Positions 1-63,898 of a stretch of DNA of 64,000 bases are shown one piece after another (the first letter of the stretch is position 1; the number at the start of each line of letters is the position of its first letter). A program made the position numbers and the translations under genes. Source of the DNA: a virus. The stretch is taken from the IMG/VR virus record IMGVR_UViG_3300031873_000004, positions 1 through 64,000 of that record; one strand, 5' to 3'. The notes under the pieces are model-generated. The model saw only the letters and a program-made list of their open reading frames with translations. It did not search any database and was not told the DNA's origin.

Positions 1-83
1 GACCCCGACCACGACCCCGACCACGACCCCGACCACGACCGCGACCCCGACCACGACCGCGACCGCGACCGCGACCACGACCC
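1..83 (-). repeat. Hexamer tandem repeat (TCG NGG)n, N=T/C/G
   Basis: Plus strand reads gacccc/gaccac/gaccgc units. Confidence 0.95.
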
Positions 84-116
84 ATCAAATCCAGCACGAG
101 CCACTGCGGCAATCAT
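1..116 (-). CDS. Ser-X dipeptide-repeat peptide (MIAAVARAGFDG-SWSRSRSRSWSG...), runs off the window edge
   Basis: ATG at 116 overlaps the TGA of the upstream gene (ATGA). A 12-aa leader is followed by (TCG NGG)n. Not in the ORF track. Confidence 0.7.
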   Translation of the reverse strand, partial: MIAAVARAGFDGSWSRSRSRSWSGSRSWSGSWSGSWSG

Positions 117-454
117 TTAAGCGACCTCGGCAGAACTTCAATGCGAACTGCGTCAATAATAGCTCCTCGCCCAATAATAACTCGGCCAGAAGGAAATGGC
201 TCGCATTCATTGAACTGCGCCTTTTTGATAGCTTCGGAAAAGCGGCCTGTATCGGGTATCCATGCAGCATCTTCGAGCACCAGTTCGTGTTCAGTCACGC
301 TGACAAGTTTTCCCGTGTCAATCATGGTGACGGTGCGGATGAGATAATTTTCACCCACCTCCCATCCGTGTTCGGTAGTCTGACTGTTGCTGAATAACTT
401 CTGCAACTCCTGCAACTCCTTAACCTGCTTTAGTGTCAAATCGTCAATGTTCAT
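113..454 (-). CDS. Small Sm/SH3-like beta-barrel protein, paralog of 60829..61200
   Basis: YLIRT...GKL...ELVLEDA motif; AAGGAGG RBS before ATG at 454. Confidence 0.7.
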   Translation of the reverse strand: MNIDDLTLKQVKELQELQKLFSNSQTTEHGWEVGENYLIRTVTMIDTGKLVSVTEHELVLEDAAWIPDTGRFSEAIKKAQFNECEPFPSGRVIIGRGAIIDAVRIEVLPRSLK

Positions 455-472
455 TTGTAACCTCCTTGACAT

Positions 473-498
473 ATTATACAGAACTCACGTCGTTTAGT
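473..498 (-). promoter_or_regulatory. Putative middle promoter ACTAAA-N14-TATAAT
   Basis: One of six copies with identical spacing; near-identical to 61237..61262. Confidence 0.8.
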
Positions 499-505
499 TA
501 TGAGA

Positions 506-2691: not shown

Positions 2692-3005
2692 TATACGTCC
2701 TCCTTGAGGAACTTGCGCAGCTTTGCCGGATCGACATACCACTTGCCACCCTTGTGACCAATTTGCTTACCGATACCATATGTCACACACCAGTTGATGA
2801 GCGTTGGTCTCGTAACAGGCATCCCGGCGCTGGACGCATAGGCGAGGGCTTGCGTGATTGTAAACTTGGTCGCAGCCTCAACGTAAGTTGAACATCCCTT
2901 CACGGTGAGTATGCGCCCTTCCTTCAACCCTGAGCAATCCGATTTATTTACAGTCTTGCGGGTGGGTATGGCACAGGTACCGCAATTTTTATTTGATGCT
3001 GACAT
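2691..3005 (-). CDS. Small Cys-containing protein with excisionase/MerR-like HTH
   Basis: CxxC N-terminus; TRPTLINWC...GGKWYVD wing. Confidence 0.55.
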   Translation of the reverse strand: MSASNKNCGTCAIPTRKTVNKSDCSGLKEGRILTVKGCSTYVEAATKFTITQALAYASSAGMPVTRPTLINWCVTYGIGKQIGHKGGKWYVDPAKLRKFLKEDV

Positions 3006-3063
3006 ACACTCTCCTTAAACAGCTGCCGGGCGCAGGATGGATTTCACCACGCCCGGCATGTCA

Positions 3064-3222
3064 CTACACAGCCGCCTTGATCTCTTTCACGACGAGCTTA
3101 ACTTCGCCGAGTGTCAAACCTGCCAAACCGGCCTTGACGGCTCTCGTGACTTCCTTCGCTTCCTTCGCATCGTTCGTCACGAAGCTTGCCTTCACGCTGA
3201 AATTCACCACGTTCTTTGCCAT
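3064..3222 (-). CDS. Small basic protein (MAKNVVNFSVKASFV..., 52 aa)
   Basis: Hand-translated; strong AAGGAGG RBS. Confidence 0.65.
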   Translation of the reverse strand: MAKNVVNFSVKASFVTNDAKEAKEVTRAVKAGLAGLTLGEVKLVVKEIKAAV

Positions 3223-3370
3223 ATTATACAGTCCTCCTTTCATTTAGTGATAAACTACTTGTCGAATGGCTGGTAGAGCTTACTTTCGACCCGCACCGAA
3301 ACTTCACCTTTGCCATAGCTCTCGTTTCGTGTGATGCGCGACCGCCAGTTCCACTCGACAAGCTCTCTGA

Positions 3371-4537
3371 CTACCTTCTCCGCCGCGCAGGAGCTGCTTC
3401 CGCAGGTGCAGGCTCGACCGGTGCAGCAGCCTTTGATTTCGTAGGCACAGCCCCGGTGGTCTTGCGCTTCTTTTCCTGTCTGCAATCCTCCCACACATCG
3501 CAGGAATCGCACTCGTCTTTCGTATCGGTATCCTTGCCGAAAACGTGACCGCTCGGACAGTCACCATCGGCAGGCTTTGCGGCTTTCGGAATGACCACAC
3601 CTTCTGTTCTTTTGTGAACAGGCTCGTCCTGGTCAGGATCGATTGCATGGCGACCGCGTGCGCCCGGTGCATCAGGATCGTGACGGTGCGGGTCGGGTGC
3701 GTTTGTAGGTGACGGTTCAGCTGCCGCGCGTCTCCGAGGTGCTGGCTCCGGTTCGGGAGCAGGTGCCGCTCGCCGAGGTGCGGCAGCTTCTTCCTTTTCC
3801 TCATCAGCGGGTGCATCGGTGCCGAGGAAGATGGCTTCAAGCTGGGCGTAGCTGAGAATGTTGATCGCCTCGTCGAAATTCACCACCTCCTTGAGAATGT
3901 CCTCGGAGTAGGCTTCGCGTTTCGCACCGTCGATGCGGCTGGTCTCGTAGAATTCCTGCTTGCCCATCTTCTTTTCACGGAACCGGGCGCTGATCGTATA
4001 TCCGTCTTTCAGCTCGGCGTACCCGTACAAGTCCTCGTTGAGCCGCTGTTCCTCTTCCAGCATCTTGGTGAAGAGGTGATAGGACACGTCCCACACCTGC
4101 ACCTTCTGATCCTTCGTGCCGAGGTCGATGAGGTTGTACAGCACCCGTTCCTTTGACCGGAGCGCATCCACATCTTCTTTCGCCATCGAGCTGTTCTTCT
4201 TGGCAGCAGCATGAGCCTCGCAAATCGGACAGGCTTTGCCGATGGACTTCAAGCACACACGAGGCTTCTGCTCTGCGCCGACATCCCTGTGCATCCAGTA
4301 AATGCGACAGTCGGTCATGTCACCTACGGAAGCCCGTCCCGCGAGCACGTCCGGATGGCGCGGGTCGGTGATGACGTACGGAAGGAAGTCCAGCTCCGCA
4401 GCCGCTCCTTTGTTCTCAAACCACTTTACACCTTCGGGCAGGTTTACACTCCCACCCCCGCCACCGTGAGTTGTCTCCTCGGTGCGGCGCTTCGCCCTGT
4501 CTCTCATAGAACTTTTTGCAGCACTTTCTCTTGCCAT
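3371..4537 (-). CDS. Phage single-stranded DNA-binding protein with Pro/Ala linker and C-terminal Cys4 motif
   Basis: H...VCLKSIGKACPICE Zn motif, RVLYN; lies between UvsY-like and RecA genes. Confidence 0.7.
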   Translation of the reverse strand: MARESAAKSSMRDRAKRRTEETTHGGGGGSVNLPEGVKWFENKGAAAELDFLPYVITDPRHPDVLAGRASVGDMTDCRIYWMHRDVGAEQKPRVCLKSIGKACPICEAHAAAKKNSSMAKEDVDALRSKERVLYNLIDLGTKDQKVQVWDVSYHLFTKMLEEEQRLNEDLYGYAELKDGYTISARFREKKMGKQEFYETSRIDGAKREAYSEDILKEVVNFDEAINILSYAQLEAIFLGTDAPADEEKEEAAAPRRAAPAPEPEPAPRRRAAAEPSPTNAPDPHRHDPDAPGARGRHAIDPDQDEPVHKRTEGVVIPKAAKPADGDCPSGHVFGKDTDTKDECDSCDVWEDCRQEKKRKTTGAVPTKSKAAAPVEPAPAEAAPARRRR

Positions 4538-4674
4538 AACGTAGCCTCCCTTGTCTTGCTGCTTGTATTGTAATTCTTGCAGTCGATTATATTCTTGCTT
4601 CGTGATACGAGTGCCGTTCGGTGCGTCCGCTTGAGGGTGTTGCCATAAGCAGTCACCTTGTCGATAATAAAACA

Positions 4675-5235
4675 CTATGACCTGCGACCGCGCCTCGGTG
4701 GTTGCTCGCCAGAACTATCAGGCAGAGCGGTCGTTTCGTTGGAGTCCTGCATAGGATGTCGTCGAGCTGCTATCTTATCTCTTGCAGCCTCACGTGAGAC
4801 ACCACCCGCCTTCGCGTACTCAGACGCAATATCCCTCGGCACGACCGGCCCTGCAAAATACTGTTGACCGTGAAGACGCACGAGGTTTTCAAGAGCATCC
4901 TTGCGCTGATCGAACGCCTTGACCGCAGCCTGAAGGATATTCACATCATGCTCGGCCTGCATCACCGCGTCCGACGCTGACTTCGCTTCCGCATCCTGCG
5001 CAACTCCGTCGCGTACCATATCCACGGTGAACTTGTTACCTTCTCCGGTAAGCCTGTCGCGCACCCTTGCACCGGCTTCGGCTTTGATCACATCCATGCG
5101 CTCGGTCAGGCGCGACAGTTCGAGTCTGGCGTTTGCCAATTCCTCAGCGTATTTCATAAAAAGCCGAGGTTGCTTCAACCATTCGATGTCGAGCCCGTTC
5201 GGGTCAATGGTTAAGTCTTTGTCGTAGTCGCTCAT
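4675..5235 (-). CDS. UvsY-like recombination mediator
   Basis: DLTIDPNGLDIEWLKQP start, coiled coil, AFDQRKDALENL. Confidence 0.7.
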   Translation of the reverse strand: MSDYDKDLTIDPNGLDIEWLKQPRLFMKYAEELANARLELSRLTERMDVIKAEAGARVRDRLTGEGNKFTVDMVRDGVAQDAEAKSASDAVMQAEHDVNILQAAVKAFDQRKDALENLVRLHGQQYFAGPVVPRDIASEYAKAGGVSREAARDKIAARRHPMQDSNETTALPDSSGEQPPRRGRRS

Positions 5236-10823: not shown

Positions 10824-11519
10824 TTACTTTACGGTGATTTTCTTTTCTGCATCCGTCTTGACCTTGTGGCCAGCCGCTTCGACCTTCTTGAGCAGGTCAT
10901 AGAACGTCCGGCCCAGCTTCTTGGTGACCTCGGCCATCGTGTGCTTGCCGGTGGCGAACATTTCCATCGCCTTCGCATTGTTGGTTCCGGGGCGGCATCC
11001 GAACTTGTCGAGCTCAACCTTTGCCTTGGCAGCTTTCTTGGCTTTGGGCTCCTTCACCGGCTTCGGTGCCTTGACGGGTTTCTCGGCCTTCGGTACCTTT
11101 GCGGGTTTGGCAGGCTTCTCGGCCTTCGGTGCCTTGACGGGTTTCTCGGCCTTCACCGGCTTCGGTGCTTTCTCTGCCTTCGGCGCAGGCTCGTCACTCT
11201 CACCAGCCTCCATCTCGTCGTGTGCGGCTTCTTCCTCGGTGGGCTCAACCACCACAGCCTTCGTCTTCTTCGGCATGATCGCCGCCTTCTTCTCCGCATC
11301 CCACACACCGACATTCACAAAGAACGCCCACACGTCCGCGCTGAACGTATCCTTCGCCAGGATTGCGTCCTTCGGTTGCCCGTCCCCGGTCGCGTTACGC
11401 TTGATCTCGTCCAGCATCGAATCGTCATCCATCATCTCGTGGTCGATGGGCGGGGTAAGCGCCATCACCGTGTTCATTTCCGTTGCTACCTTCTGCAAGA
11501 GTTCCCGTTTATGTGCCAT
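10824..11519 (-). CDS. Histone H1-like Lys/Ala/Pro-repeat DNA-binding protein
   Basis: KAEKPVKAPK repeats, C-terminal winged-helix-like segment, own promoter and RBS. Confidence 0.7.
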   Translation of the reverse strand: MAHKRELLQKVATEMNTVMALTPPIDHEMMDDDSMLDEIKRNATGDGQPKDAILAKDTFSADVWAFFVNVGVWDAEKKAAIMPKKTKAVVVEPTEEEAAHDEMEAGESDEPAPKAEKAPKPVKAEKPVKAPKAEKPAKPAKVPKAEKPVKAPKPVKEPKAKKAAKAKVELDKFGCRPGTNNAKAMEMFATGKHTMAEVTKKLGRTFYDLLKKVEAAGHKVKTDAEKKITVK

Positions 11520-13729: not shown

Positions 13730-15411
13730 ATAACTCCTGTCAACATTAGCCATGCAGTTGCCATACATAAAGGTACTTGTCCATTGCCGATTGCTTTGAG
13801 TCTGTGTGCTCGGTTCTTTGTGTCGGTAGTTACTCGTGGAATAGGGGGCTCGGCTGACCACACACTTCCTGAACAAGTGTATACAATGAGCCAATCCTTT
13901 TCTTTGTCATCAAGGGATTGCCATATTTCTTGAAGCGAGTTAAGTGTTTTTGACAAAACCCCAAACCTGCTGGAGGCATTCCACAAATTGAGCAGTCCGA
14001 CTGTCTCCTCGGCATAGTTTTCCCATTGCTCCAATGCCATTTCGTATGACAGGAGCCGCACAACGTCATGATATTGTCCTGAACATTGTGCGCAATATCC
14101 CCGTTCAGATGATGAACTTGCAATTTCTTTTGTGTTCCGCACATCTCGCAATTCTTTTTCTTGAATTTGTGAGCTCTTTTTAAGAGTGCTGATTTTTTCG
14201 GCGCATCCTTTATTTGACGCACTGCCATGCATTTCGCGTCGCAAAATTTCCGCCGCTTGAACACAGTTGCATCTTCGAGACGATCGCCATATCTCTTCCG
14301 GTTCATCGTTTTTCCGCACTGAAGACACGCTTTTGGATCTACCTTTATTTGCCGATAAGGTCTGTATTCTTTTCCCATAAGTTTTCATTTCCTCCGAAAT
14401 CAAAGGTTCAGGTGATGACCATCCTCTCCACCACCCCATAAGGTAAAACTCAACCCAGTCCGGATTGAGCTGTCCCGTTGCCACCGTTGCCGCAAGGTGT
14501 CCGTGAGCTTTCATGTTCGCTTGACTCTTTGTACCTATCGGACCACTACCTTTGTGATCGGATTGAGTTGGTGTAGGGAAGACCGGTCTTGCATCTTTAC
14601 CAGACAATTTATAATGTAAACCGAGGATACGAGCTGTCTGACAGCTCGTATCCTCCCAAGTTTCAGATGAACGCAAATAAGATTTGACGTGAGCACCCTC
14701 CATCGCAGACGGTGTTGGCCAATACTTAACTGCATCTTGAAGATAGGTGGCGCGCGGCGCGCCACCGTATTTCTTACGTCGGGCTGCATATTGCTCAGGT
14801 GTACATTCACGAGTCGATACCATCGGAGTAGGCCATATCATAACAGCATCGGACAGTCCGATGCTGTGGCTACCCTTTCCGTCACGTGTCTTTCGTCTTC
14901 CCGTGGATGTCAATTCCATTTCAGGGTGCTCAACTTCCTGTGTGGTCGGAGTAGGCCAGATGACACATCCTAAAACTTGACGTGCTTCATCTTCACTTAT
15001 ATCACCATTTATTACTTTATCACGAACCATCTCACGAGAACCACTACCGCCGAGTAACCCTCGTGTTCTGGGACTTGGCCAAAATCCAGACCCGATCCCT
15101 CCTATGCGGCGCTCCAACATCGGCAGCTGATAGCACACGCCATCGAGCATCATACCCGCCTTCGGCCAGGTCTCGGAGAATGGTTCCGAAATACCGAATA
15201 TCGTCGTTCGGCCCGTCCTCCAAATCCCACTGTCCAGAGTCGCCATTTTCAATGCCGAGGAGTGCAGAGACGTTTTCCAAGAGGCACCATTCGGGTTTGA
15301 CTGCTCGGATGACGTCCATAGTCGCTGGCCACATGTTTCTGGCGTCACCAACTCCTTTTTGTTTGCCTGCCGATGAGAACGGTTGACATGGAAATCCTCC
15401 CGACACGACAT
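13711..15411 (-). CDS. C5 cytosine methyltransferase second polypeptide (WPTP repeats, motifs IX and X)
   Basis: Five [W/F]P[T/S]P repeats, GQLNPDWVE.LMG, RLKAIGNGQVP; start codon uncertain. Confidence 0.7.
   Translation of the reverse strand: MSCREDFHVNRSHRQANKKELVTPETCGQRLWTSSEQSNPNGASWKTSLHSSALKMATLDSGIWRTGRTTIFGISEPFSETWPKAGMMLDGVCYQLPMLERRIGGIGSGFWPSPRTRGLLGGSGSREMVRDKVINGDISEDEARQVLGCVIWPTPTTQEVEHPEMELTSTGRRKTRDGKGSHSIGLSDAVMIWPTPMVSTRECTPEQYAARRKKYGGAPRATYLQDAVKYWPTPSAMEGAHVKSYLRSSETWEDTSCQTARILGLHYKLSGKDARPVFPTPTQSDHKGSGPIGTKSQANMKAHGHLAATVATGQLNPDWVEFYLMGWWRGWSSPEPLISEEMKTYGKRIQTLSANKGRSKSVSSVRKNDEPEEIWRSSRRCNCVQAAEILRREMHGSASNKGCAEKISTLKKSSQIQEKELRDVRNTKEIASSSSERGYCAQCSGQYHDVVRLLSYEMALEQWENYAEETVGLLNLWNASSRFGVLSKTLNSLQEIWQSLDDKEKDWLIVYTCSGSVWSAEPPIPRVTTDTKNRAHRLKAIGNGQVPLCMATAWLMLTGVICVSDR
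13830..14378 (-). CDS. HNH endonuclease with Zn ribbons, nested in an alternative frame
   Basis: CEMCG...QVHHLNG...N...N...LCGSCH..WH; GGAGG RBS. Confidence 0.85.
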   Translation of the reverse strand: MGKEYRPYRQIKVDPKACLQCGKTMNRKRYGDRLEDATVFKRRKFCDAKCMAVRQIKDAPKKSALLKRAHKFKKKNCEMCGTQKKLQVHHLNGDIAHNVQDNIMTLCGSCHTKWHWSNGKTMPRRQSDCSICGMPPAGLGFCQKHLTRFKKYGNPLMTKKRIGSLYTLVQEVCGQPSPLFHE

Positions 15412-16394: not shown

Positions 16395-17232
16395 GGTGAA
16401 ACTCCTTTACGTTGTCATATTTGTTCGGGTTGGTTGATATGCTCGCGTCACCTTTCGCTGATACCTGTTCATACTTTCCAGGGGTAGCAGGTACTCCGTA
16501 AAATTCACCAGCACCTTTTCTTACGCGCGGTTGACGGGTGGGTGCATCTCGTCGCATTTGAGATTCCAGAATGTCAAACTTAATTCTTAACTTTTCAGTT
16601 GATAAAATATTCGAATGCCAGAAGTCGCTTGTTTGACACCAATCAATAACAGCCGCTATGCGATCTCTTGAACGTTTATCTATGCGAAGCATTCGGTCTA
16701 TGACTTTAGCCCATTGCTGAATGTTAGGTAATTTGAAGTCTTGTTTCTGAGCAATGATGCGATTGAGTAATCTTTGAGATAGTTCTATTTCCACACCAGC
16801 CTCAGAAAAGGTTTTGGTTTTCTGAGGAGATGTTTTAGGTTCTTCTTTACTATTATTCTTAGCTATAGTATATGGTAGCTGTTTTCGGCTAGGCAGGGTA
16901 GCTATTTTCAGCGAGTCAGGGTAGCTATTTTCAGCTAGTCTGCCTAGTCGTAGAGATCGCCACCTACCATCGAAATTTACCTGTTGTATAATTTCAGCAG
17001 CTTTCAATTCAGATATCAAATGACTGACTCGTCCCACGCTCAGGCCCATGAACTTTGCAAGATATGCATTGCTGGCATAGCATCCGCGTTCGGGATCTTG
17101 AAGTGATCTTATCTCGGCGGCGAGAACCTTTCCCATAGTTGATAATGTTGGGTGAGTCCATATTTCAATGGGGATAGTTATATGAGTTACTTGGCGTTTT
17201 GGTTGTTCGGGATTTATGTCATTTCTGGGCAT
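16381..17232 (-). CDS. Replication initiator (N-terminal HTH, lambda O-like layout)
   Basis: CYASNAYLA HTH; FWHSNILSTEKLR.KFD.L C-domain; internal iterons; followed by DnaC. Confidence 0.85.
   Translation of the reverse strand: MPRNDINPEQPKRQVTHITIPIEIWTHPTLSTMGKVLAAEIRSLQDPERGCYASNAYLAKFMGLSVGRVSHLISELKAAEIIQQVNFDGRWRSLRLGRLAENSYPDSLKIATLPSRKQLPYTIAKNNSKEEPKTSPQKTKTFSEAGVEIELSQRLLNRIIAQKQDFKLPNIQQWAKVIDRMLRIDKRSRDRIAAVIDWCQTSDFWHSNILSTEKLRIKFDILESQMRRDAPTRQPRVRKGAGEFYGVPATPGKYEQVSAKGDASISTNPNKYDNVKEFHHESR
16874..16938. repeat. Three iterons (GGTAGCTRTTTTCRGC, 23-bp period), probable replication origin
   Basis: Copies start at 16874, 16897 and 16920 inside the initiator gene, next to an AT-rich tract. 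Confidence 0.8.
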
Positions 17233-23032: not shown

Positions 23033-23443
23033 TTACATACCTCCTTCACGATATGCAATGAGGGAGAGTATTGTATGCTTAAAAAATCTGTAGAATGCTT
23101 TTCCGTTCGAGTCGAGTTTTTCAGCTTGGGCTTCAGTGAGAGACTTCCATTCGGTGATTGTTTTAATATAACATCCGATGGAAATATGAGTTTCCATGAT
23201 TGTAACTTGATATGGGAGTCCGATTATGTTGATTGGAGATTTTAGTACCTGTGCATTCCCGGATACCCATGCATTCCCGTATACCTGTGCATTCCCGTAT
23301 ACCCATGCATTCCCGTATATTGAGAGATTTATTTCATTTTCAATCCATCCACCAACTTCATCGGTTAAAACTCGTTTGATCTGTTTCAACGTGATACCAA
23401 ATATAATCTTTGTCTTACCTGTGAATGTGTATTTCGTATTCAT
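23033..23443 (-). CDS. Hexapeptide (GNAWVY) repeat beta-helix protein
   Basis: GGWIE.E.NL followed by four GNA[W/Q]V repeats (18-bp tandem). Confidence 0.75.
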   Translation of the reverse strand: MNTKYTFTGKTKIIFGITLKQIKRVLTDEVGGWIENEINLSIYGNAWVYGNAQVYGNAWVSGNAQVLKSPINIIGLPYQVTIMETHISIGCYIKTITEWKSLTEAQAEKLDSNGKAFYRFFKHTILSLIAYREGGM

Positions 23444-59001: not shown

Positions 59002-60084
59002 ATGGATAGAACAAACGGTGCGAATAATATCAACGTGGGCGGCAAGCGCAAGTTTACAGACGGACCTCCTGGGACGTGCGTTGAAGAGGGTTTCCTGAAC
59101 GGTGTGCAGGAAGAGATAATGGCTGTGATCGAGGGTGCGGGACTTGTGCCCGACGCCAATGTCAACACTCAGCTCCGTGACAGCATCTTCGCTACCGTCT
59201 CCGGTGGTGGGTTCTTCAACGTGCCAGCTATAGGCTTGAGCATAGGTTCGGGCGGACTCGGCGCATATACCAGCGGCGGCAACTCTGTGATGGATGGCGA
59301 GTATCACTTCACCGACTTCACCTTGCAGAGTGCGCATCAGCTCAGCGTGGGCTCAACTGGCATTCTCATTATTCGCTGCACGGGGACGGCGACGATCAAC
59401 GGTAGTGTGAACGGTGCGGGAACTGTTGGGGCAAGTGGATCAACCGCCGGACTTCCTTATGGTAGTGGGGGTCATGGTGGAGGTGGGGGTGGTGCCGGAG
59501 GTTACGGAGCTGGTGGAAGTGGAGGGATTCCTCTATCTGTTAATTATGCGGGTAATGCTGGTGGATTTTGGTCTGCTGGTTCGGGAACCAACAACGGCGG
59601 AACCGCTGGTTCAGGAAAAACAAACCCACTACTTTTACGATTCCATGCGGGAATCATGGGAGGAAGTGGCGGTTCTAATTTGGGATCATGTGGTCAGCCC
59701 GGTGGTAGTTTAGTGAACGTTACAGAATGGACAATATGTAATTTTATTTCAATGAATGTTTTATTCGGAGGAGGAGGAGGCGGTGGGGGAAGTCCGACGG
59801 CCGGACTCGGTGGTCCAAGTGGAGGCGGTGGGGGTGGAGGTGGTTCTTTTATATTGATTGTTGCCCCTTCGATATTAGGTGCAGGATCAGTTAATTCTAA
59901 TGGTGGATATGGTGGTAGCTCTACGAGTGGTGCCGGAGGAGGAGGAGGAGGGGGAGGCGTTGCTATAACCGTATCGAAAAATACGCCGTCAATTTCAATC
60001 TCTGCGGTAGGTGGCTCGGCAGGGTCAGGATCATTCGTCGGTAGTGCGGGATCGAATGGATTTGGAAAAAGTTACCACCCTTGA
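59002..60084 (+). CDS. Tail fiber with Mu-type N-terminus and glycine-rich body
   Basis: MDR...FTDG...LN.VQEE...IE.AG.; poly-Gly segments. Confidence 0.8.
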   Translation: MDRTNGANNINVGGKRKFTDGPPGTCVEEGFLNGVQEEIMAVIEGAGLVPDANVNTQLRDSIFATVSGGGFFNVPAIGLSIGSGGLGAYTSGGNSVMDGEYHFTDFTLQSAHQLSVGSTGILIIRCTGTATINGSVNGAGTVGASGSTAGLPYGSGGHGGGGGGAGGYGAGGSGGIPLSVNYAGNAGGFWSAGSGTNNGGTAGSGKTNPLLLRFHAGIMGGSGGSNLGSCGQPGGSLVNVTEWTICNFISMNVLFGGGGGGGGSPTAGLGGPSGGGGGGGGSFILIVAPSILGAGSVNSNGGYGGSSTSGAGGGGGGGGVAITVSKNTPSISISAVGGSAGSGSFVGSAGSNGFGKSYHP

Positions 60085-60595: not shown

Positions 60596-60841
60596 CTATC
60601 CTTGACCATAGCCAGAGCCATAGCCATAGCCATAGCCATCGCCAGAGCCATAGCCATAGCCATAGCCATAGCCAGAGCCATGGCCATAGCCAGAGCCATC
60701 GCCATAGCCAGAGCCAGAGCCAGAGCCAGAGCCATAGCCATAGCCATCGCTAGAGCCAGAGCCATCGCCATAGCCATCGCCATAGCCAGAGCCATCGCCA
60801 TAGCCAGAGCCATAGCCATCGCTAGACGTTACTGTTTCCAT
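60596..60841 (-). CDS. Gly-X (X=Y/S/D/H) dipeptide-repeat peptide
   Basis: ATG overlaps the upstream gene by 13 nt; (GGC NNT)n. Confidence 0.65.
   Translation of the reverse strand: METVTSSDGYGSGYGDGSGYGDGYGDGSGSSDGYGYGSGSGSGSGYGDGSGYGHGSGYGYGYGYGSGDGYGYGYGSGYGQG
60605..60824 (-). repeat. Hexamer tandem repeat GGC-TAT/TCT/GAT, ~36 units
   Basis: Plus strand gccata/gccaga/gccatc units. Confidence 0.95.
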
Positions 60842-61200
60842 ATCTCAACCCCGTTGATTGATTTTACAGCCTTTGCAGAGCATTTGTCGATTTCGATCAC
60901 TTCCGTTAAAATCAACTCAGCAACCGCAACCGGAAATTTGCACTCTTTCGGTTTACTCGTCCCTTCCATCGCAAGCTGTGAGAGACTTGCCGCACCTGCC
61001 CACATCCACAACCGCCGAGCATTTGTCATCTCAACTTCTTTCCCGTTGCGGGACTTGATGTGCCCGAAGAACACACCAGCTGAGTTAGTGCGCACGATGT
61101 AATAATCCGCGCTCATTTCGGGCTGCTCCTTTATCAAGTCCTTCCTGATATATTCAGCTTCACTTCCGTCTTCGTTCTTCAACATAACAGAATGTAACAT
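60829..61200 (-). CDS. Sm/SH3-like protein (DUF6948-like), paralog of 113..454
   Basis: YIVRT.SAGVFFG...EV...NARRLW.W.GA.SLS..A..G; GGAGG RBS. Confidence 0.8.
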   Translation of the reverse strand: MLHSVMLKNEDGSEAEYIRKDLIKEQPEMSADYYIVRTNSAGVFFGHIKSRNGKEVEMTNARRLWMWAGAASLSQLAMEGTSKPKECKFPVAVAELILTEVIEIDKCSAKAVKSINGVEIWKQ

Positions 61201-61236: not shown

Positions 61237-61262
61237 ATTATACTAGACTCACGTCGTTTAGT
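61237..61262 (-). promoter_or_regulatory. Putative middle promoter, near-identical to 473..498
   Basis: TCATAACTAAACGACGTGAGT-CTA-GTATAATA. Confidence 0.8.
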
Positions 61263-61282
61263 TATGACGATTTGAAAATAAT

Positions 61283-63898
61283 TTACAACTCATCCCAGAC
61301 AGCTCCGTTGTCATGCGGAAACTTCTCTATATACTGAGCAAGCGCTTCATGTGCCCTATCGTCAAGCCCAGCACGTTTCAGGATGGACGCATAGGTTAGG
61401 AGGAAGTGGTCAAACTCCGTACTGTTGGACATTGCTTCGCTTATCCACTTCAATCCCTCCTGCAAGTCAGCCACAGGATCGTTGTCAGCCCAGAGCTTGA
61501 CGAGTACCTGGCCGTACTCGAACTTAAAGCGATGGACTTCCTGAAAATCCTCCACCAACGACTTGTACTCAGCCGCCGCCAGGACCAAATTATCAAGCAT
61601 GTTATATGCCGATGCGATGCCCCAGCGAGCTTCTTGACGGGTAGGAATTAACTCCTTTGCCTTCTTCAGCAACTCCATCGCCTCGCTGAACTTTTTACCA
61701 TCGCGTCCAAGCTCAAGTGCTTCGTCTATGAGGTCGAGATACTCCGGGATTTTATTGCGATTGAGAGATAGATCAACCTCGTAAACGTCCTTTGCCTTCT
61801 CAATTGCATCCGTACGCATGATAATTGACCTATCAATTATATCGGCAGCATGTTTCATGATCAAAGCATCGGGTCGAGGTGCTTGTTTCATTGTCCGACA
61901 CGCTTCAAGATATGGTTTGGCGAATGCACCTGTGCTCAAATAGTGCTCAGCGTCATCTAAGCTCGGTGCATCGGGATCGCCAATCGAATCGAGTATTCCG
62001 GACTTCCCCTGACCGTACTCAATGAGCGTATTGCGAGTCTCCTCGTAAGTTGCTTTCAGGTCCTTTGCGGCATCACGAGCGGCCTTCAGGATTATCTCGT
62101 TGCGGTCAAGCCTGATGTCTCGCTCCTTCTTAAACTTCTTGGTGGCAAGCAACTGCGCATCAGCCTCCACGTTGAGCGCCCGTCCCTGAATAGCTCGGCT
62201 TGCTCCGTATATGGCAAGCGATACTGTCGGCATACGCTTAGCGGCTTCATACGCCACCGTGCTGTGTTTAGCATTTTCGTGAAATAGCTTCATCAGCTTT
62301 TTCTGACTGGTCGTGTTCCTCAATTTCATCACGGTCTTGAGTCCCAGTTCAGCGTGCTCGATAATGAGCTTGAGCAGTTTCAAGTCAGTAGTGAGCAGCG
62401 GGAGCAATCGCTGAATGGTCGCGTCGGCATTCGGGTCGAGATTGAGCAGAGGCTTGAGCACTGATTTGTCTATTGGTGCAATGGCATGTTTAGCAAGGGC
62501 ATCTGACAGGAACATACGCTTGGCCCCGCGCTTCCTCGCGCCACCCTCCGTACAGTCGATAGTCTCGGTATCTTTGAACGCTTCAATGAGTCGCTCAAAC
62601 GCTGTGATAAACGTCATCAACCCTGTGTTCGTGAGCACTGAATCACCCCACCACCCTGCAACATAGGTCTCAGGCCCCATGCCGATGTCGGTGCGGGCGT
62701 GAAGCGTCTTGCTTCGCGGATCGTCAACCACCCATTTGATCTGACCGTCAACCACAGTAATGTGACCAGCACTATCCGCTTGCATGAAATGGCTGGTCGT
62801 GCCGAGGGCTAGGTTCATTCCGACGAACATCACAGGCGAGCATCCCATATGAGCGCAGAGCGAGTACGCCATATGAGCGACCGAGCCGCCCTGTGCCAGC
62901 TCACCTTTATCTTTCAAGATACCGTGAGCAGTTTCGTCATATCCCTGATTGATTGACGCGCTAATGAACTTCGGACCCTTGTACGCCTTGAGTATAGGTG
63001 CGTACGTCTTGTTGATAGTGACCAGCGGTACGGTCTCGTCCATCAGTCCTGCGAGGTGGGTCATATTTACTTCACCGAAATCTACTGTACAAATGAAGTC
63101 TGGTGTGATGCCATAGGCGAGAAGAGGTCGGAGTGCCTGTGCTACTGCAACAATAATAACCTTGTCTTGTGTCTCTTTGAGCAGATGGATGTTGCGATTG
63201 AGAGCTGGACCTGTGCCAACCATCACTGCAGGCTTTCCCTTGAATAAATCCTTGAGGTCGTTTACTCCTCGATGGCGGATGACATATGGTAGGGTGGCGA
63301 TGTCATTATCAGCAATCTTAGCTCCGGCGCTCACCACAGTCCCAGTATTGCACTGGATTGCGTTGAGCGACTCAATTGTGTACGTGCTCAGCTTCCAGTA
63401 TTCCGGTCGAGTGCGAGTGATGAGTTCGATCAACACTCCCCAGTCCTCAACTACCTTTGAACCCTCCATGAGCGAAAGGAGGAAGTCAACTTCGGCTTTA
63501 CCGGGAGCAATGAGTAGCGATTGATTTTTGATATACTCGGACAAATCATATTGTGCAAACATCAATCTCAGCATATGAGATATAGGCTCAACTGCAATCA
63601 CATGATGCCCTTTTTCCATTTTCTTGAGAAGTAAATTCAACGCATGACCGAGGCCCACGCCTATGAATACAGTGACTGTCTCTTTATCGGAGCGAACCAT
63701 GTCAGCAACGCACTGTGCATCTTTGAATGGGTCGGTCACATCGTATACCGGTAGTGGTCGCCCATTCTCGGTTATCCAGAGCTGATCACCCTCATTCCGT
63801 ATCCAATCCTCGGTTGCACCCTTCTCCAACCACTCGGCAAGTCCGGGGTGGGTTTCTTTGATTGCTACCATGTTTTTCTCGTATATTTCAGTGCTCAT
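61283..63898 (-). CDS. Maf (motility-associated factor/DUF115)-like glycosyltransferase with C-terminal TPRs
   Basis: YEKN...HP.LA, G.GLG, FKGKPAV.VG.GP.L, GI.PD, GGSV, GC.P..FVG.NLA, TEGGA. Confidence 0.85.
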   Translation of the reverse strand: MSTEIYEKNMVAIKETHPGLAEWLEKGATEDWIRNEGDQLWITENGRPLPVYDVTDPFKDAQCVADMVRSDKETVTVFIGVGLGHALNLLLKKMEKGHHVIAVEPISHMLRLMFAQYDLSEYIKNQSLLIAPGKAEVDFLLSLMEGSKVVEDWGVLIELITRTRPEYWKLSTYTIESLNAIQCNTGTVVSAGAKIADNDIATLPYVIRHRGVNDLKDLFKGKPAVMVGTGPALNRNIHLLKETQDKVIIVAVAQALRPLLAYGITPDFICTVDFGEVNMTHLAGLMDETVPLVTINKTYAPILKAYKGPKFISASINQGYDETAHGILKDKGELAQGGSVAHMAYSLCAHMGCSPVMFVGMNLALGTTSHFMQADSAGHITVVDGQIKWVVDDPRSKTLHARTDIGMGPETYVAGWWGDSVLTNTGLMTFITAFERLIEAFKDTETIDCTEGGARKRGAKRMFLSDALAKHAIAPIDKSVLKPLLNLDPNADATIQRLLPLLTTDLKLLKLIIEHAELGLKTVMKLRNTTSQKKLMKLFHENAKHSTVAYEAAKRMPTVSLAIYGASRAIQGRALNVEADAQLLATKKFKKERDIRLDRNEIILKAARDAAKDLKATYEETRNTLIEYGQGKSGILDSIGDPDAPSLDDAEHYLSTGAFAKPYLEACRTMKQAPRPDALIMKHAADIIDRSIIMRTDAIEKAKDVYEVDLSLNRNKIPEYLDLIDEALELGRDGKKFSEAMELLKKAKELIPTRQEARWGIASAYNMLDNLVLAAAEYKSLVEDFQEVHRFKFEYGQVLVKLWADNDPVADLQEGLKWISEAMSNSTEFDHFLLTYASILKRAGLDDRAHEALAQYIEKFPHDNGAVWDEL

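Follow-up and report, generated by a model that had tools for sequence, protein, structure and literature searches.

The stretch of DNA considered here, 'the window', consists of bases 1-64000 of a 79,431-nt IMG/VR virus record, IMGVR_UViG_3300031873_000004, a record which is called linear and 97% complete. What the window holds is best explained as a single kind of phage two-gene cassette, conserved and self-contained, that is present in two copies which have diverged. Such a 'cassette' consists of a gene for a small protein with a predicted Sm fold, the end of which overlaps the gene for a dipeptide-repeat microprotein that is predicted to be disordered. Copy 1 is a basic, (Ser-[Trp/Arg/Gly])n version of this cassette (here, 'Ser-X'), and copy 2 is an acidic, (Gly-[Tyr/Ser/Asp])n version ('Gly-X'), with all cassette genes of both copies found on the minus strand. 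The term 'partner' is used for the predicted Sm-fold protein, i.e., as distinct from the repeat peptide that is encoded behind it.

Copy 1 begins with a promoter-like element at 473..503 (TCATAACTAAACGACGTGAGT-TCT-GTATAAT, with TATAAT at 473..478), followed by a Shine-Dalgarno sequence, AAGGAGG, which was read from the sequence at 461..467, that is, 6 nt before an ATG at 454. It is at that ATG that homologues begin; a longer open reading frame (ORF), from 472, starts within the promoter element. The partner gene proper, at 113..454, encodes a 113-aa protein which, as judged from homologues and from a predicted model, represents an unnamed, putatively Sm-fold sister family of DUF6948. The TGA of this gene overlaps as ATGA the ATG (116..114) of the Ser-X ORF, of which the 5' part is present at 1..116. 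That ORF starts with a 12-aa leader, MIAAVARAGFDG, and then continues as (TCG-NGG)n, i.e., as the array at 1..82, for which Tandem Repeats Finder (TRF) reports a period of 6 and 13.7 copies. A single base varies per hexamer and the Ser codon is TCG throughout, just as had been described in a first-pass annotation of this DNA. The contig begins inside of the array, and the Ser-X ORF consequently is truncated, at 38 codons.

Copy 2 begins with a promoter-like element at 61237..61267, which is the copy-1 21-mer again, followed by CTA-GTATAAT (TATAAT at 61237..61242). Its partner gene, at 60829..61200, encodes a 123-aa DUF6948 (PF22253) protein, as supported by a Pfam match (E 6.1e-27) along with a predicted, Sm-fold model. 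Overlapping that gene by 13 nt is an 81-aa Gly-X ORF at 60596..60841, with a net charge of -8 and with an ATG that overlaps a Trp codon of the upstream DUF6948 gene. The hexamer array within that ORF, GGC-(TAT/TCT/GAT), is found at 60606..60819 and is present as 35.7 copies, again by TRF. The first-pass annotation had stated that each of the two partner genes overlaps the start of an ORF made up of a leader plus a hexamer repeat, and indeed both do, as ATGA and by 13 nt, respectively.

Linkage of the two genes across phages

Evidence on the cassette as a unit comes from 79 viral loci fetched for the copy-1 family, from 80 fetched for DUF6948, and from an independent set of 48 genome or metagenome-assembled genome (MAG) loci, these for the copy-1 family. 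A period-6 array, i.e., a (Ser-[Trp/Arg/Gly])n ORF, is found directly behind the copy-1-family gene in 69 of the 79 viral loci, and a (Gly-X)n ORF is found behind the DUF6948 gene in 68 of 80. Within the genome/MAG set, which includes copies integrated in contigs of 2.3-2.5 Mb, a Ser-X ORF is seen behind the gene in 36/48 loci, and this is down to protein identities of ~35%. Repeat type also tracks protein family, with Ser-X accompanying the copy-1 family and Gly-X accompanying DUF6948. The first-pass annotation had reasoned that, with a dedicated pairing, homologues too should be followed by a dipeptide-repeat ORF, one varying in type with protein clade, and in these three sets of loci that is what is seen. 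Cassettes of this sort, that is, are real and widespread, as is shown here.

The overlap of the two genes is similarly regular. Of 78 Ser-X arrays, 47 belong to an ORF with its start at -4 (ATGA), and of 60 Gly-X arrays, 58 belong to one with its start at -13. The Gly-X ATG is made up of bases from two adjacent codons of the upstream gene, with TG supplied by the invariant Trp codon and A by the codon just before it, which has to end in that base, and the resulting Gly-X leader, only 4-7 aa in length, is set by this overlap with the upstream gene. As the second gene overlaps the end of the first, translation of the former is most likely by coupling. Both copies found in the window display the whole of this arrangement, i.e., a repeat ORF which is directly behind, which starts in overlap, which is found on the same strand, and which possesses the repeat that is specific to the partner's family.

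Across phages the repeat peptides range from 25 to 145 aa, with strict two-residue periodicity, and some loci carry 2-4 Ser-X genes in tandem per partner gene. Upon clustering of the 4116 ORFs around 159 loci, no third conserved gene was found. Among 20 long contigs with the copy-1 family, none (0/20) also carry DUF6948, a search for which a positive control was run. In loci L042 and L157 the two cassette types are found side by side. As separate observations on those same loci, L157 possesses an HNH endonuclease gene as an insertion that separates the Sm-like gene from the Ser-X gene belonging to it (2885-4635), and L042 possesses three degenerate Ser-X genes in succession (3279-4979). Only one GenBank phage record contains the copy-1 family, with the 43-aa overlapping coding sequence that follows there annotated as hypothetical; more generally, the repeat genes often are unannotated or instead are called in the wrong frame. 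Candidate carriers of the DUF6948 cassette among cultured phages are the Pectobacterium phages, Ralstonia phage NK-7, and Iodobacter phage PhiPLPE. No paper was found in the literature describing either cassette, nor any on DUF6948.

The promoter-like elements represent a further commonality between the two copies. The copy-1 element consists of an ACTAAA box, a 14-nt spacer, and TATAAT, plus 5 conserved bases further upstream, and it has no canonical match when compared with sigma-70 promoters. A 20-mer shared between the two elements occurs exactly 2 times, one of them at 61248..61267, versus 0 expected by chance. The broader class, ACWAAA-N14-TATAAT, which is bipartite and without a -35 hexamer, is represented by 7 minus-strand sites in the window (473, 3223, 5462, 11545, 17458, 18380, and 61237), again versus 0 expected. 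The class may represent a promoter type, dependent on a phage or host factor, which would drive leftward genes, and it is in terms of sequence that both cassettes are shown here to have one such putative phage promoter type in common. The first-pass annotation's claim of a nearly identical element before both modules thus stands, given the exact recurrence of the 20-mer, but the element is not specific to these modules: A third copy, found outside of the window in the remainder of the record (which we designate L004; at L004 5743..5765), precedes an unrelated 63-aa ORF, with the spacer also common to both cassettes.

It is also within L004, at the other end of the contig, that the copy-1 hexamer is seen again, as GACCNC, forming a 250-nt array at L004 15131..15380. 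This array is part of a second (Ser-[Trp/Arg/Gly])n ORF, found on the minus strand at L004 15129..15404 (genome 79129-79404) and encoding a peptide of 91 aa, with a net charge of +14 and with 41 Ser, 19 Trp, 14 Gly, and 13 Arg. The leader differs from that of copy 1 and is basic (MIRGRYRKW). As the frame is open to the contig end, the start at 15404 is provisional. If the genome is circular or permuted, then this array would sit just downstream of copy 1, which would match those relatives that possess 2-4 tandem Ser-X genes. As seen with reads at the contig end, contigs break within the array, and the arrays at 1..82 and L004 15131..15380 are not joined into one or two ORFs. Across four sediment metagenomes the array draws 1200-2175 contigs per run, with the loose ends of these contigs encoding the conserved leader, implying that many Ser-X genes coexist in those metagenomes. 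Such arrays, that is, break short-read assemblies, and many related contigs, like this one, stop within an array.

The second Ser-X ORF stops 1 base before an SbcC-like ATPase gene. The SbcC-like protein itself (L004 12994-15127 region, minus strand) is only 350 aa in length, corresponding to an N-terminal part (AAA_23), and has a CxxC motif at its end. After its gene come a 73-aa Cys-rich ORF and then an SbcD-like phosphoesterase, and L004 12994-15127 may represent a split or interrupted SbcC.

Partner proteins and their predicted folds

The copy-2 partner scores 94 bits against a DUF6948 cut-off of 27 and has 4853 homologues. The copy-1 partner matches neither Pfam nor PHROG entries, and its more than 1000 close homologues, none of them with a Pfam domain, form 1578 clusters at 50% identity; that is, about 1600 clusters' worth of a protein family has as yet no Pfam entry. 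The DUF6948 Pfam model, when run against the copy-1 family, matches 0 of 53 members. Mean column identity within the partner families is 65-66%.

Both proteins are predicted to be Sm folds. The copy-1 model (predicted local distance difference test, or pLDDT, of 77) consists of a helix, three strands, a second helix, and then three further strands (E84-86, E91-95, and E99-105). Against the archaeal Sm structure 1i8f_C this model gives a Z of 9.3, with a root-mean-square deviation of 2.3 A over 64 of 68 residues, and 237 Sm/LSm chains are matched at Z >= 8. Foldseek gives an E of 5.8e-4 for the Sm fold of this model. The copy-2 model (pLDDT 85) consists of two short, low-confidence N-terminal strands followed by three strands, a helix, two strands, and a helix, reaching a Z of 7.1 and with the top Protein Data Bank (PDB) rows all Sm/LSm. 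Read by eye from the sequence, copy 1 additionally displays an Sm1-like G-x-L...L-V-L-E-D-A along with an R-G in its last hairpin. The resemblance to Sm/Hfq proteins that had been suggested in the first-pass annotation thus holds at the level of predicted folds, but not at the level of sequences or profiles, as is considered further below.

A second suggestion had been that the two partners can be aligned with each other by eye. BLASTP of copy 1 against copy 2 returns no alignment, and a first hhalign comparison, using shallow alignments, gave a probability of 0.1%. With 53 diverse relatives, hhalign gives instead a probability of 48% (E 1.9e-4), with an alignment that spans the N-terminus and strands 1-3, this being exactly the segment that had been aligned by eye, and the similarity is visible in the folds as well. 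Among viral structures, as found in BFVD, the copy-1 model is best matched by a DUF6948 protein (E 1.8e-4; template modeling, or TM, score 0.51), and in the ESM Atlas it is DUF6948 that is the nearest named cluster to copy 1 (TM 0.63 over 103 residues). The copy-1 and copy-2 proteins are shown by these comparisons to be remote homologues of each other. As the Pfam model nevertheless goes unmatched, with the relation seen only via hhalign, BFVD, and the ESM Atlas, the copy-1 family is better viewed as a sister of DUF6948 than as a member.

Complex prediction with the copy-1 protein and its peptide, both supplied as alignments, gave a score of 0.00, which is evidence for neither side. Among relatives, P0372 is a 203-aa protein with two copy-1 Sm-like domains found in one chain.

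Repeat arrays as coding sequence

In being periodic, an array can be read in more than one frame, but only one of those frames is constant in meaning from phage to phage. For arrays that follow copy-1-family genes this is always Ser-[Gly/Arg/Trp], with X residues consisting of Gly 641, Arg 608, and Trp 513 times (1762 of about 1900 positions). The other two frames of Ser-X arrays shift in meaning between phages, e.g., from GR to GH/GQ to GA. A Gly-Arg frame had been entertained as well for the array of this phage, with the variable base then falling at wobble positions and the frame running into the SbcC-like gene at the other contig end. It was rejected, as that frame becomes Gly-His/Gln or Gly-Ala in relatives, often without a start codon. 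Behind DUF6948, X residues are Ser 783, Tyr 636, and Asp 435 times.

Codons are not similarly constant. By dominant Ser codon, 50 arrays are TCG, 11 are TCA, 8 are AGC, and 8 are TCT, and the switching of Ser between TCN and AGC is something which constraint at the nucleotide level cannot explain. Labeling a tree of the copy-1 family by Ser codon gives 16 changes by parsimony, but with only 2/54 branches well supported the number of such switches is not firm. For Gly-X arrays the dominant Gly codon is GGC in 49, GGT in 7, GGG in 3, and GGA in 1, with X codons ending in C for 31 arrays and in T for 28. Relatives also have in common a Ser-X leader of 11-12 aa, M-N/I-A-A-x-L/A-R-x-G-F-D. At the level of sequence, then, the peptide reading frames are shown to be evolving as expected given amino-acid-level selection, and this conservation of amino acids rather than of codons, together with the shared leader, argues that the repeat peptides probably are translated. 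The first-pass annotation had allowed that the partner's counterpart could be either a peptide or the repeat RNA itself, and it is the peptide that is favored by these data over a pure RNA.

How these arrays change is informative as well. Within a given array, synonymous positions are uniform and variation is confined to positions that change amino acids, which points to a concerted evolution of units plus selection for mixed composition. The residues seen are single-step neighbors of one aromatic codon, that is, TGG to CGG, AGG, and GGG in Ser-X arrays, and TAY to TCY and GAY (more rarely AAY, TTY, TGY, and CAY) in Gly-X arrays. Arrays differ also in length, with indels of 18, 108, and 162 nt, i.e., in 6-nt steps, found beside partner genes that are 94-99% identical.

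From a different perspective, an array could be acting mainly as RNA or DNA, with the Sm-like protein binding to a (GG-N4)n transcript or to single-stranded DNA with 6-nt periodicity, serving toward autoregulation or as an assembly site, and with translation only secondary. Sm/Hfq rings do bind to short periodic RNA motifs, such as the A-R-N repeats recognized by the Hfq distal face, and the coding strand reads as (GG-N4)n for Ser-X and Gly-X arrays alike. In Ser-X arrays, furthermore (L005-L083 plus window 1-82), the X codons are almost exclusively NGG despite the existence of other Gly and Arg codons, i.e., GGG 616 versus GGA 23 for Gly, and CGG+AGG 582 versus ~24 for other Arg codons, and so long as this bias is unexplained the RNA/DNA reading stays alive. 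The NGG set is, however, also the set of first-position mutants of TGG, the sole Trp codon, third-position changes to which give a stop or Cys. With Ser switching between TCN and AGC and Gly using all four of its codons, the hexamer is not fixed at any other base, and a conserved leader, a conserved start overlap, and an always-open frame are features of proteins. On balance we view an array acting mainly as nucleic acid as quite improbable.

A detached tail as candidate role, and known systems

How might these two gene products function together? The reading that we prefer, at a probability of roughly 0.4, is as follows: The Sm-like protein would bind nucleic acid and would use the repeat peptide as a detached low-complexity tail. 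The Sm-like protein, that is, would assemble, probably as a ring, and bind single-stranded nucleic acid early in infection, with the repeat peptide then docking on that protein, which for the Ser-X type would be via the conserved leader. Once docked, the peptide in effect would be the tail, one whose regularly spaced aromatic and charged residues could supply multivalent weak contacts, tuning nucleic-acid binding or instead driving local clustering. Possible parallels are the Arg-Gly tails of SmD1, SmD3, and LSm4 and, in Acinetobacter, the tail of Hfq, which is Gly-rich and acid-tipped.

Various considerations weigh against this reading. Ring formation, protein-peptide binding, nucleic-acid binding, and indeed expression are proposals only here. 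The Sm assignment rests on models, as profile searches of the PDB with these proteins yield no Sm protein, and Pfam LSM is matched by neither of them, with the best E, 0.13, seen in 1 of 53 copy-1 relatives. No fused Sm-plus-repeat protein was found among the longer matches inspected, nor in a search for longer forms, which, as weak evidence, leaves the tail idea lacking in 'Rosetta-stone' support. Nor is it likely that two peptides, one of them acidic and the other basic, would act alike on nucleic acid. The NGG bias, lastly, is not obviously explained by amino-acid selection alone, leaving room for an RNA or DNA constraint.

The repeat peptide might instead be an effector acting on the host, with the barrel protein keeping it soluble, delivering it, or neutralizing it until it is required. 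In this case the targets bound by a Trp/Arg-rich peptide would be nucleic acids, ribosomes, or membranes, as with synthetic (RW)n peptides and poly-GR/PR, while a Tyr/Asp-rich one would be a decoy or sponge. Consistent with such a role are an extreme composition, with 19 Trp plus 13 Arg among 91 residues for a net +14, early-type promoters with the cassette found among early genes, and the cassette's movement between unrelated phage backbones. Arrays also evolve fast relative to the conserved partner, as is expected when facing a host target, and the 2-4 peptide genes per partner that are seen in some phages suggest that peptide dosage matters. Opposite charges within one architecture nonetheless fit a shared scaffold role better than they fit two host targets, and the partner's degree of conservation is unusual for a mere chaperone. 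The peptides, moreover, lack a signal sequence or hydrophobic segment, and no known defense or anti-defense family was matched (PADLOC being outside of that search). An effector role seems to us rather unlikely.

Yet another scenario involves the two cassettes acting jointly, with two oppositely charged, aromatic repeat polymers, each on its own Sm-like ring, co-condensing with nucleic acid to form a membraneless compartment. Contacts would be by charge as well as cation-pi/pi-pi interactions, the promoters would be co-regulated, and the resulting compartment would organize phage recombination or replication, or instead sequester host RNA. Side-by-side cassettes, as found in L042 and L157, would fit such cooperation, which we consider to be highly unlikely all the same. 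As this phage is unusual in holding both basic and acidic versions, it should be a good source for testing cooperation versus substitution.

Genomic context differs between the two copies. Copy 1 lies in a recombination block, between genes for RecA and a RuvC-like resolvase and the SbcC/SbcD-like genes, and copy 2 has a Maf-type glycosyltransferase gene directly upstream. Occasional neighbors in related loci are ERF, YqaJ, DUF669, DnaB, AAA_24, a DEAD-box helicase, and PDDEXK. The Maf neighbor, along with nearby nonulosonic-acid genes, could hint at a ribosomally synthesized and post-translationally modified peptide (RiPP)-like system. In such a system the repeat peptide would be a precursor consisting of leader plus repetitive core, recognition of the leader would fall to the small protein, and the core would be modified or cleaved by an enzyme of either phage or host. 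A conserved Ser-X leader followed by a variable repetitive core, and tandem precursor-like genes in some loci, have that look too. Nevertheless, no modifying enzyme, protease, or transporter/exporter is conserved beside the cassette in the 159 loci, Maf is found adjacent in this phage only, the Gly-X leader is short and is dictated by gene overlap, and the partner is a predicted Sm fold rather than a winged-helix RiPP recognition element. A RiPP-like system is very improbable indeed. Also unsupported, as Maf adjacency is not conserved in related loci, is the idea of these Ser/Tyr-rich repeat peptides as substrates for Maf glycosylation.

The Maf/MptE-like glycosyltransferase itself (window 61283-63898) is 871 aa in length and has TPR repeats, and together with NeuB and DegT-family genes (L004 3836-7189) it looks like a phage-borne nonulosonic-acid glycosylation set. 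Convergent with copy 2 is a plus-strand gene at 59002-60084, the 360-aa product of which contains long runs of poly-Gly/Ser, matches nothing in Pfam, and may be a fibre-like structural protein. Further tandem repeats reported by TRF are found at 11061-11168 (27/36-nt), 16874-16940 (23-nt x2.9), and 23246-23319 (18/36-nt x3.8).

Should the detached-tail reading be true, then thousands of environmental phages carry a folded Sm-like core along with a genetically separate, rapidly resizable low-complexity chain. These phages would represent, in only two small genes, a natural bacterial-world experiment on disordered 'sticker' sequences working with RNA- or DNA-binding rings.

The closest comparison is with DUF6948 plus its trailing (Gly-X)n ORF. 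Copy 2 is a member of that system, complete with the family's usual 13-nt overlap, and copy 1 is like it in its predicted fold, in a helix inserted between strands 3 and 4, and in its two-gene layout. A Trp...Gly...(E/K)-x-F-P pattern appears to be shared as well, by eye only, as no computed alignment confirms it. Copy 1 is unlike DUF6948 systems in its basic, Ser-[Trp/Arg/Gly] peptide, its long conserved leader, and its ATGA overlap.

Among other phages, T4 encodes the small early proteins GoF, MotB.1, and Frd.2, for which LSm-like folds are predicted, a role involving RNA is suspected, and multimers were not supported by AlphaFold (PMC12152347). The likeness to the cassette partners is that of small phage proteins with a predicted LSm-like barrel. 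No repeat-peptide partner has been described for these T4 proteins, however (PMC12152347), they come from a different phage group, and no sequence similarity to them was found.

The Hfq of Acinetobacter baumannii possesses a long, GGFGGQ-repeat C-terminal domain with an acidic tip, and there the copy number of repeats matters for RNA binding and autoregulation (PMC11617691). As with the cassettes, this is an Sm core associated with a glycine/aromatic repeat, and the acidic Gly-Tyr/Ser/Asp peptide is similar in composition to that tail, although no sequence relationship of the cassette proteins to Hfq was detected. In A. baumannii, though, a six-residue unit is fused to the core, whereas here it is a two-residue unit which is encoded by its own overlapping gene.

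With archaeal and eukaryotic Sm/LSm proteins, copy 1 has in common a predicted N-terminal helix plus strongly bent, five-stranded antiparallel sheet, and in both cases a dipeptide repeat is associated with the barrel. SmD1, SmD3, SmB, and LSm4, that is, carry Arg-Gly dipeptide-repeat tails. Copy 1 differs in possessing an extra helix between its Sm1 and Sm2 parts and no Pfam LSM match, as well as in having an invariant Glu in place of the uridine-binding Asn, and its repeat is encoded by a gene of its own instead of forming a C-terminal tail.

Lastly, with FUS-type [G/S]Y[G/S] and RGG/SR low-complexity domains it is composition which drives multivalent weak interactions. The repeat peptides resemble those domains in their regularly spaced Tyr, or Arg/Trp, as found in a Gly/Ser background. 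In those domains, however, such residues are irregularly spaced, and the domains are parts of large proteins, whereas the phage peptides are free-standing, at 25-145 aa.

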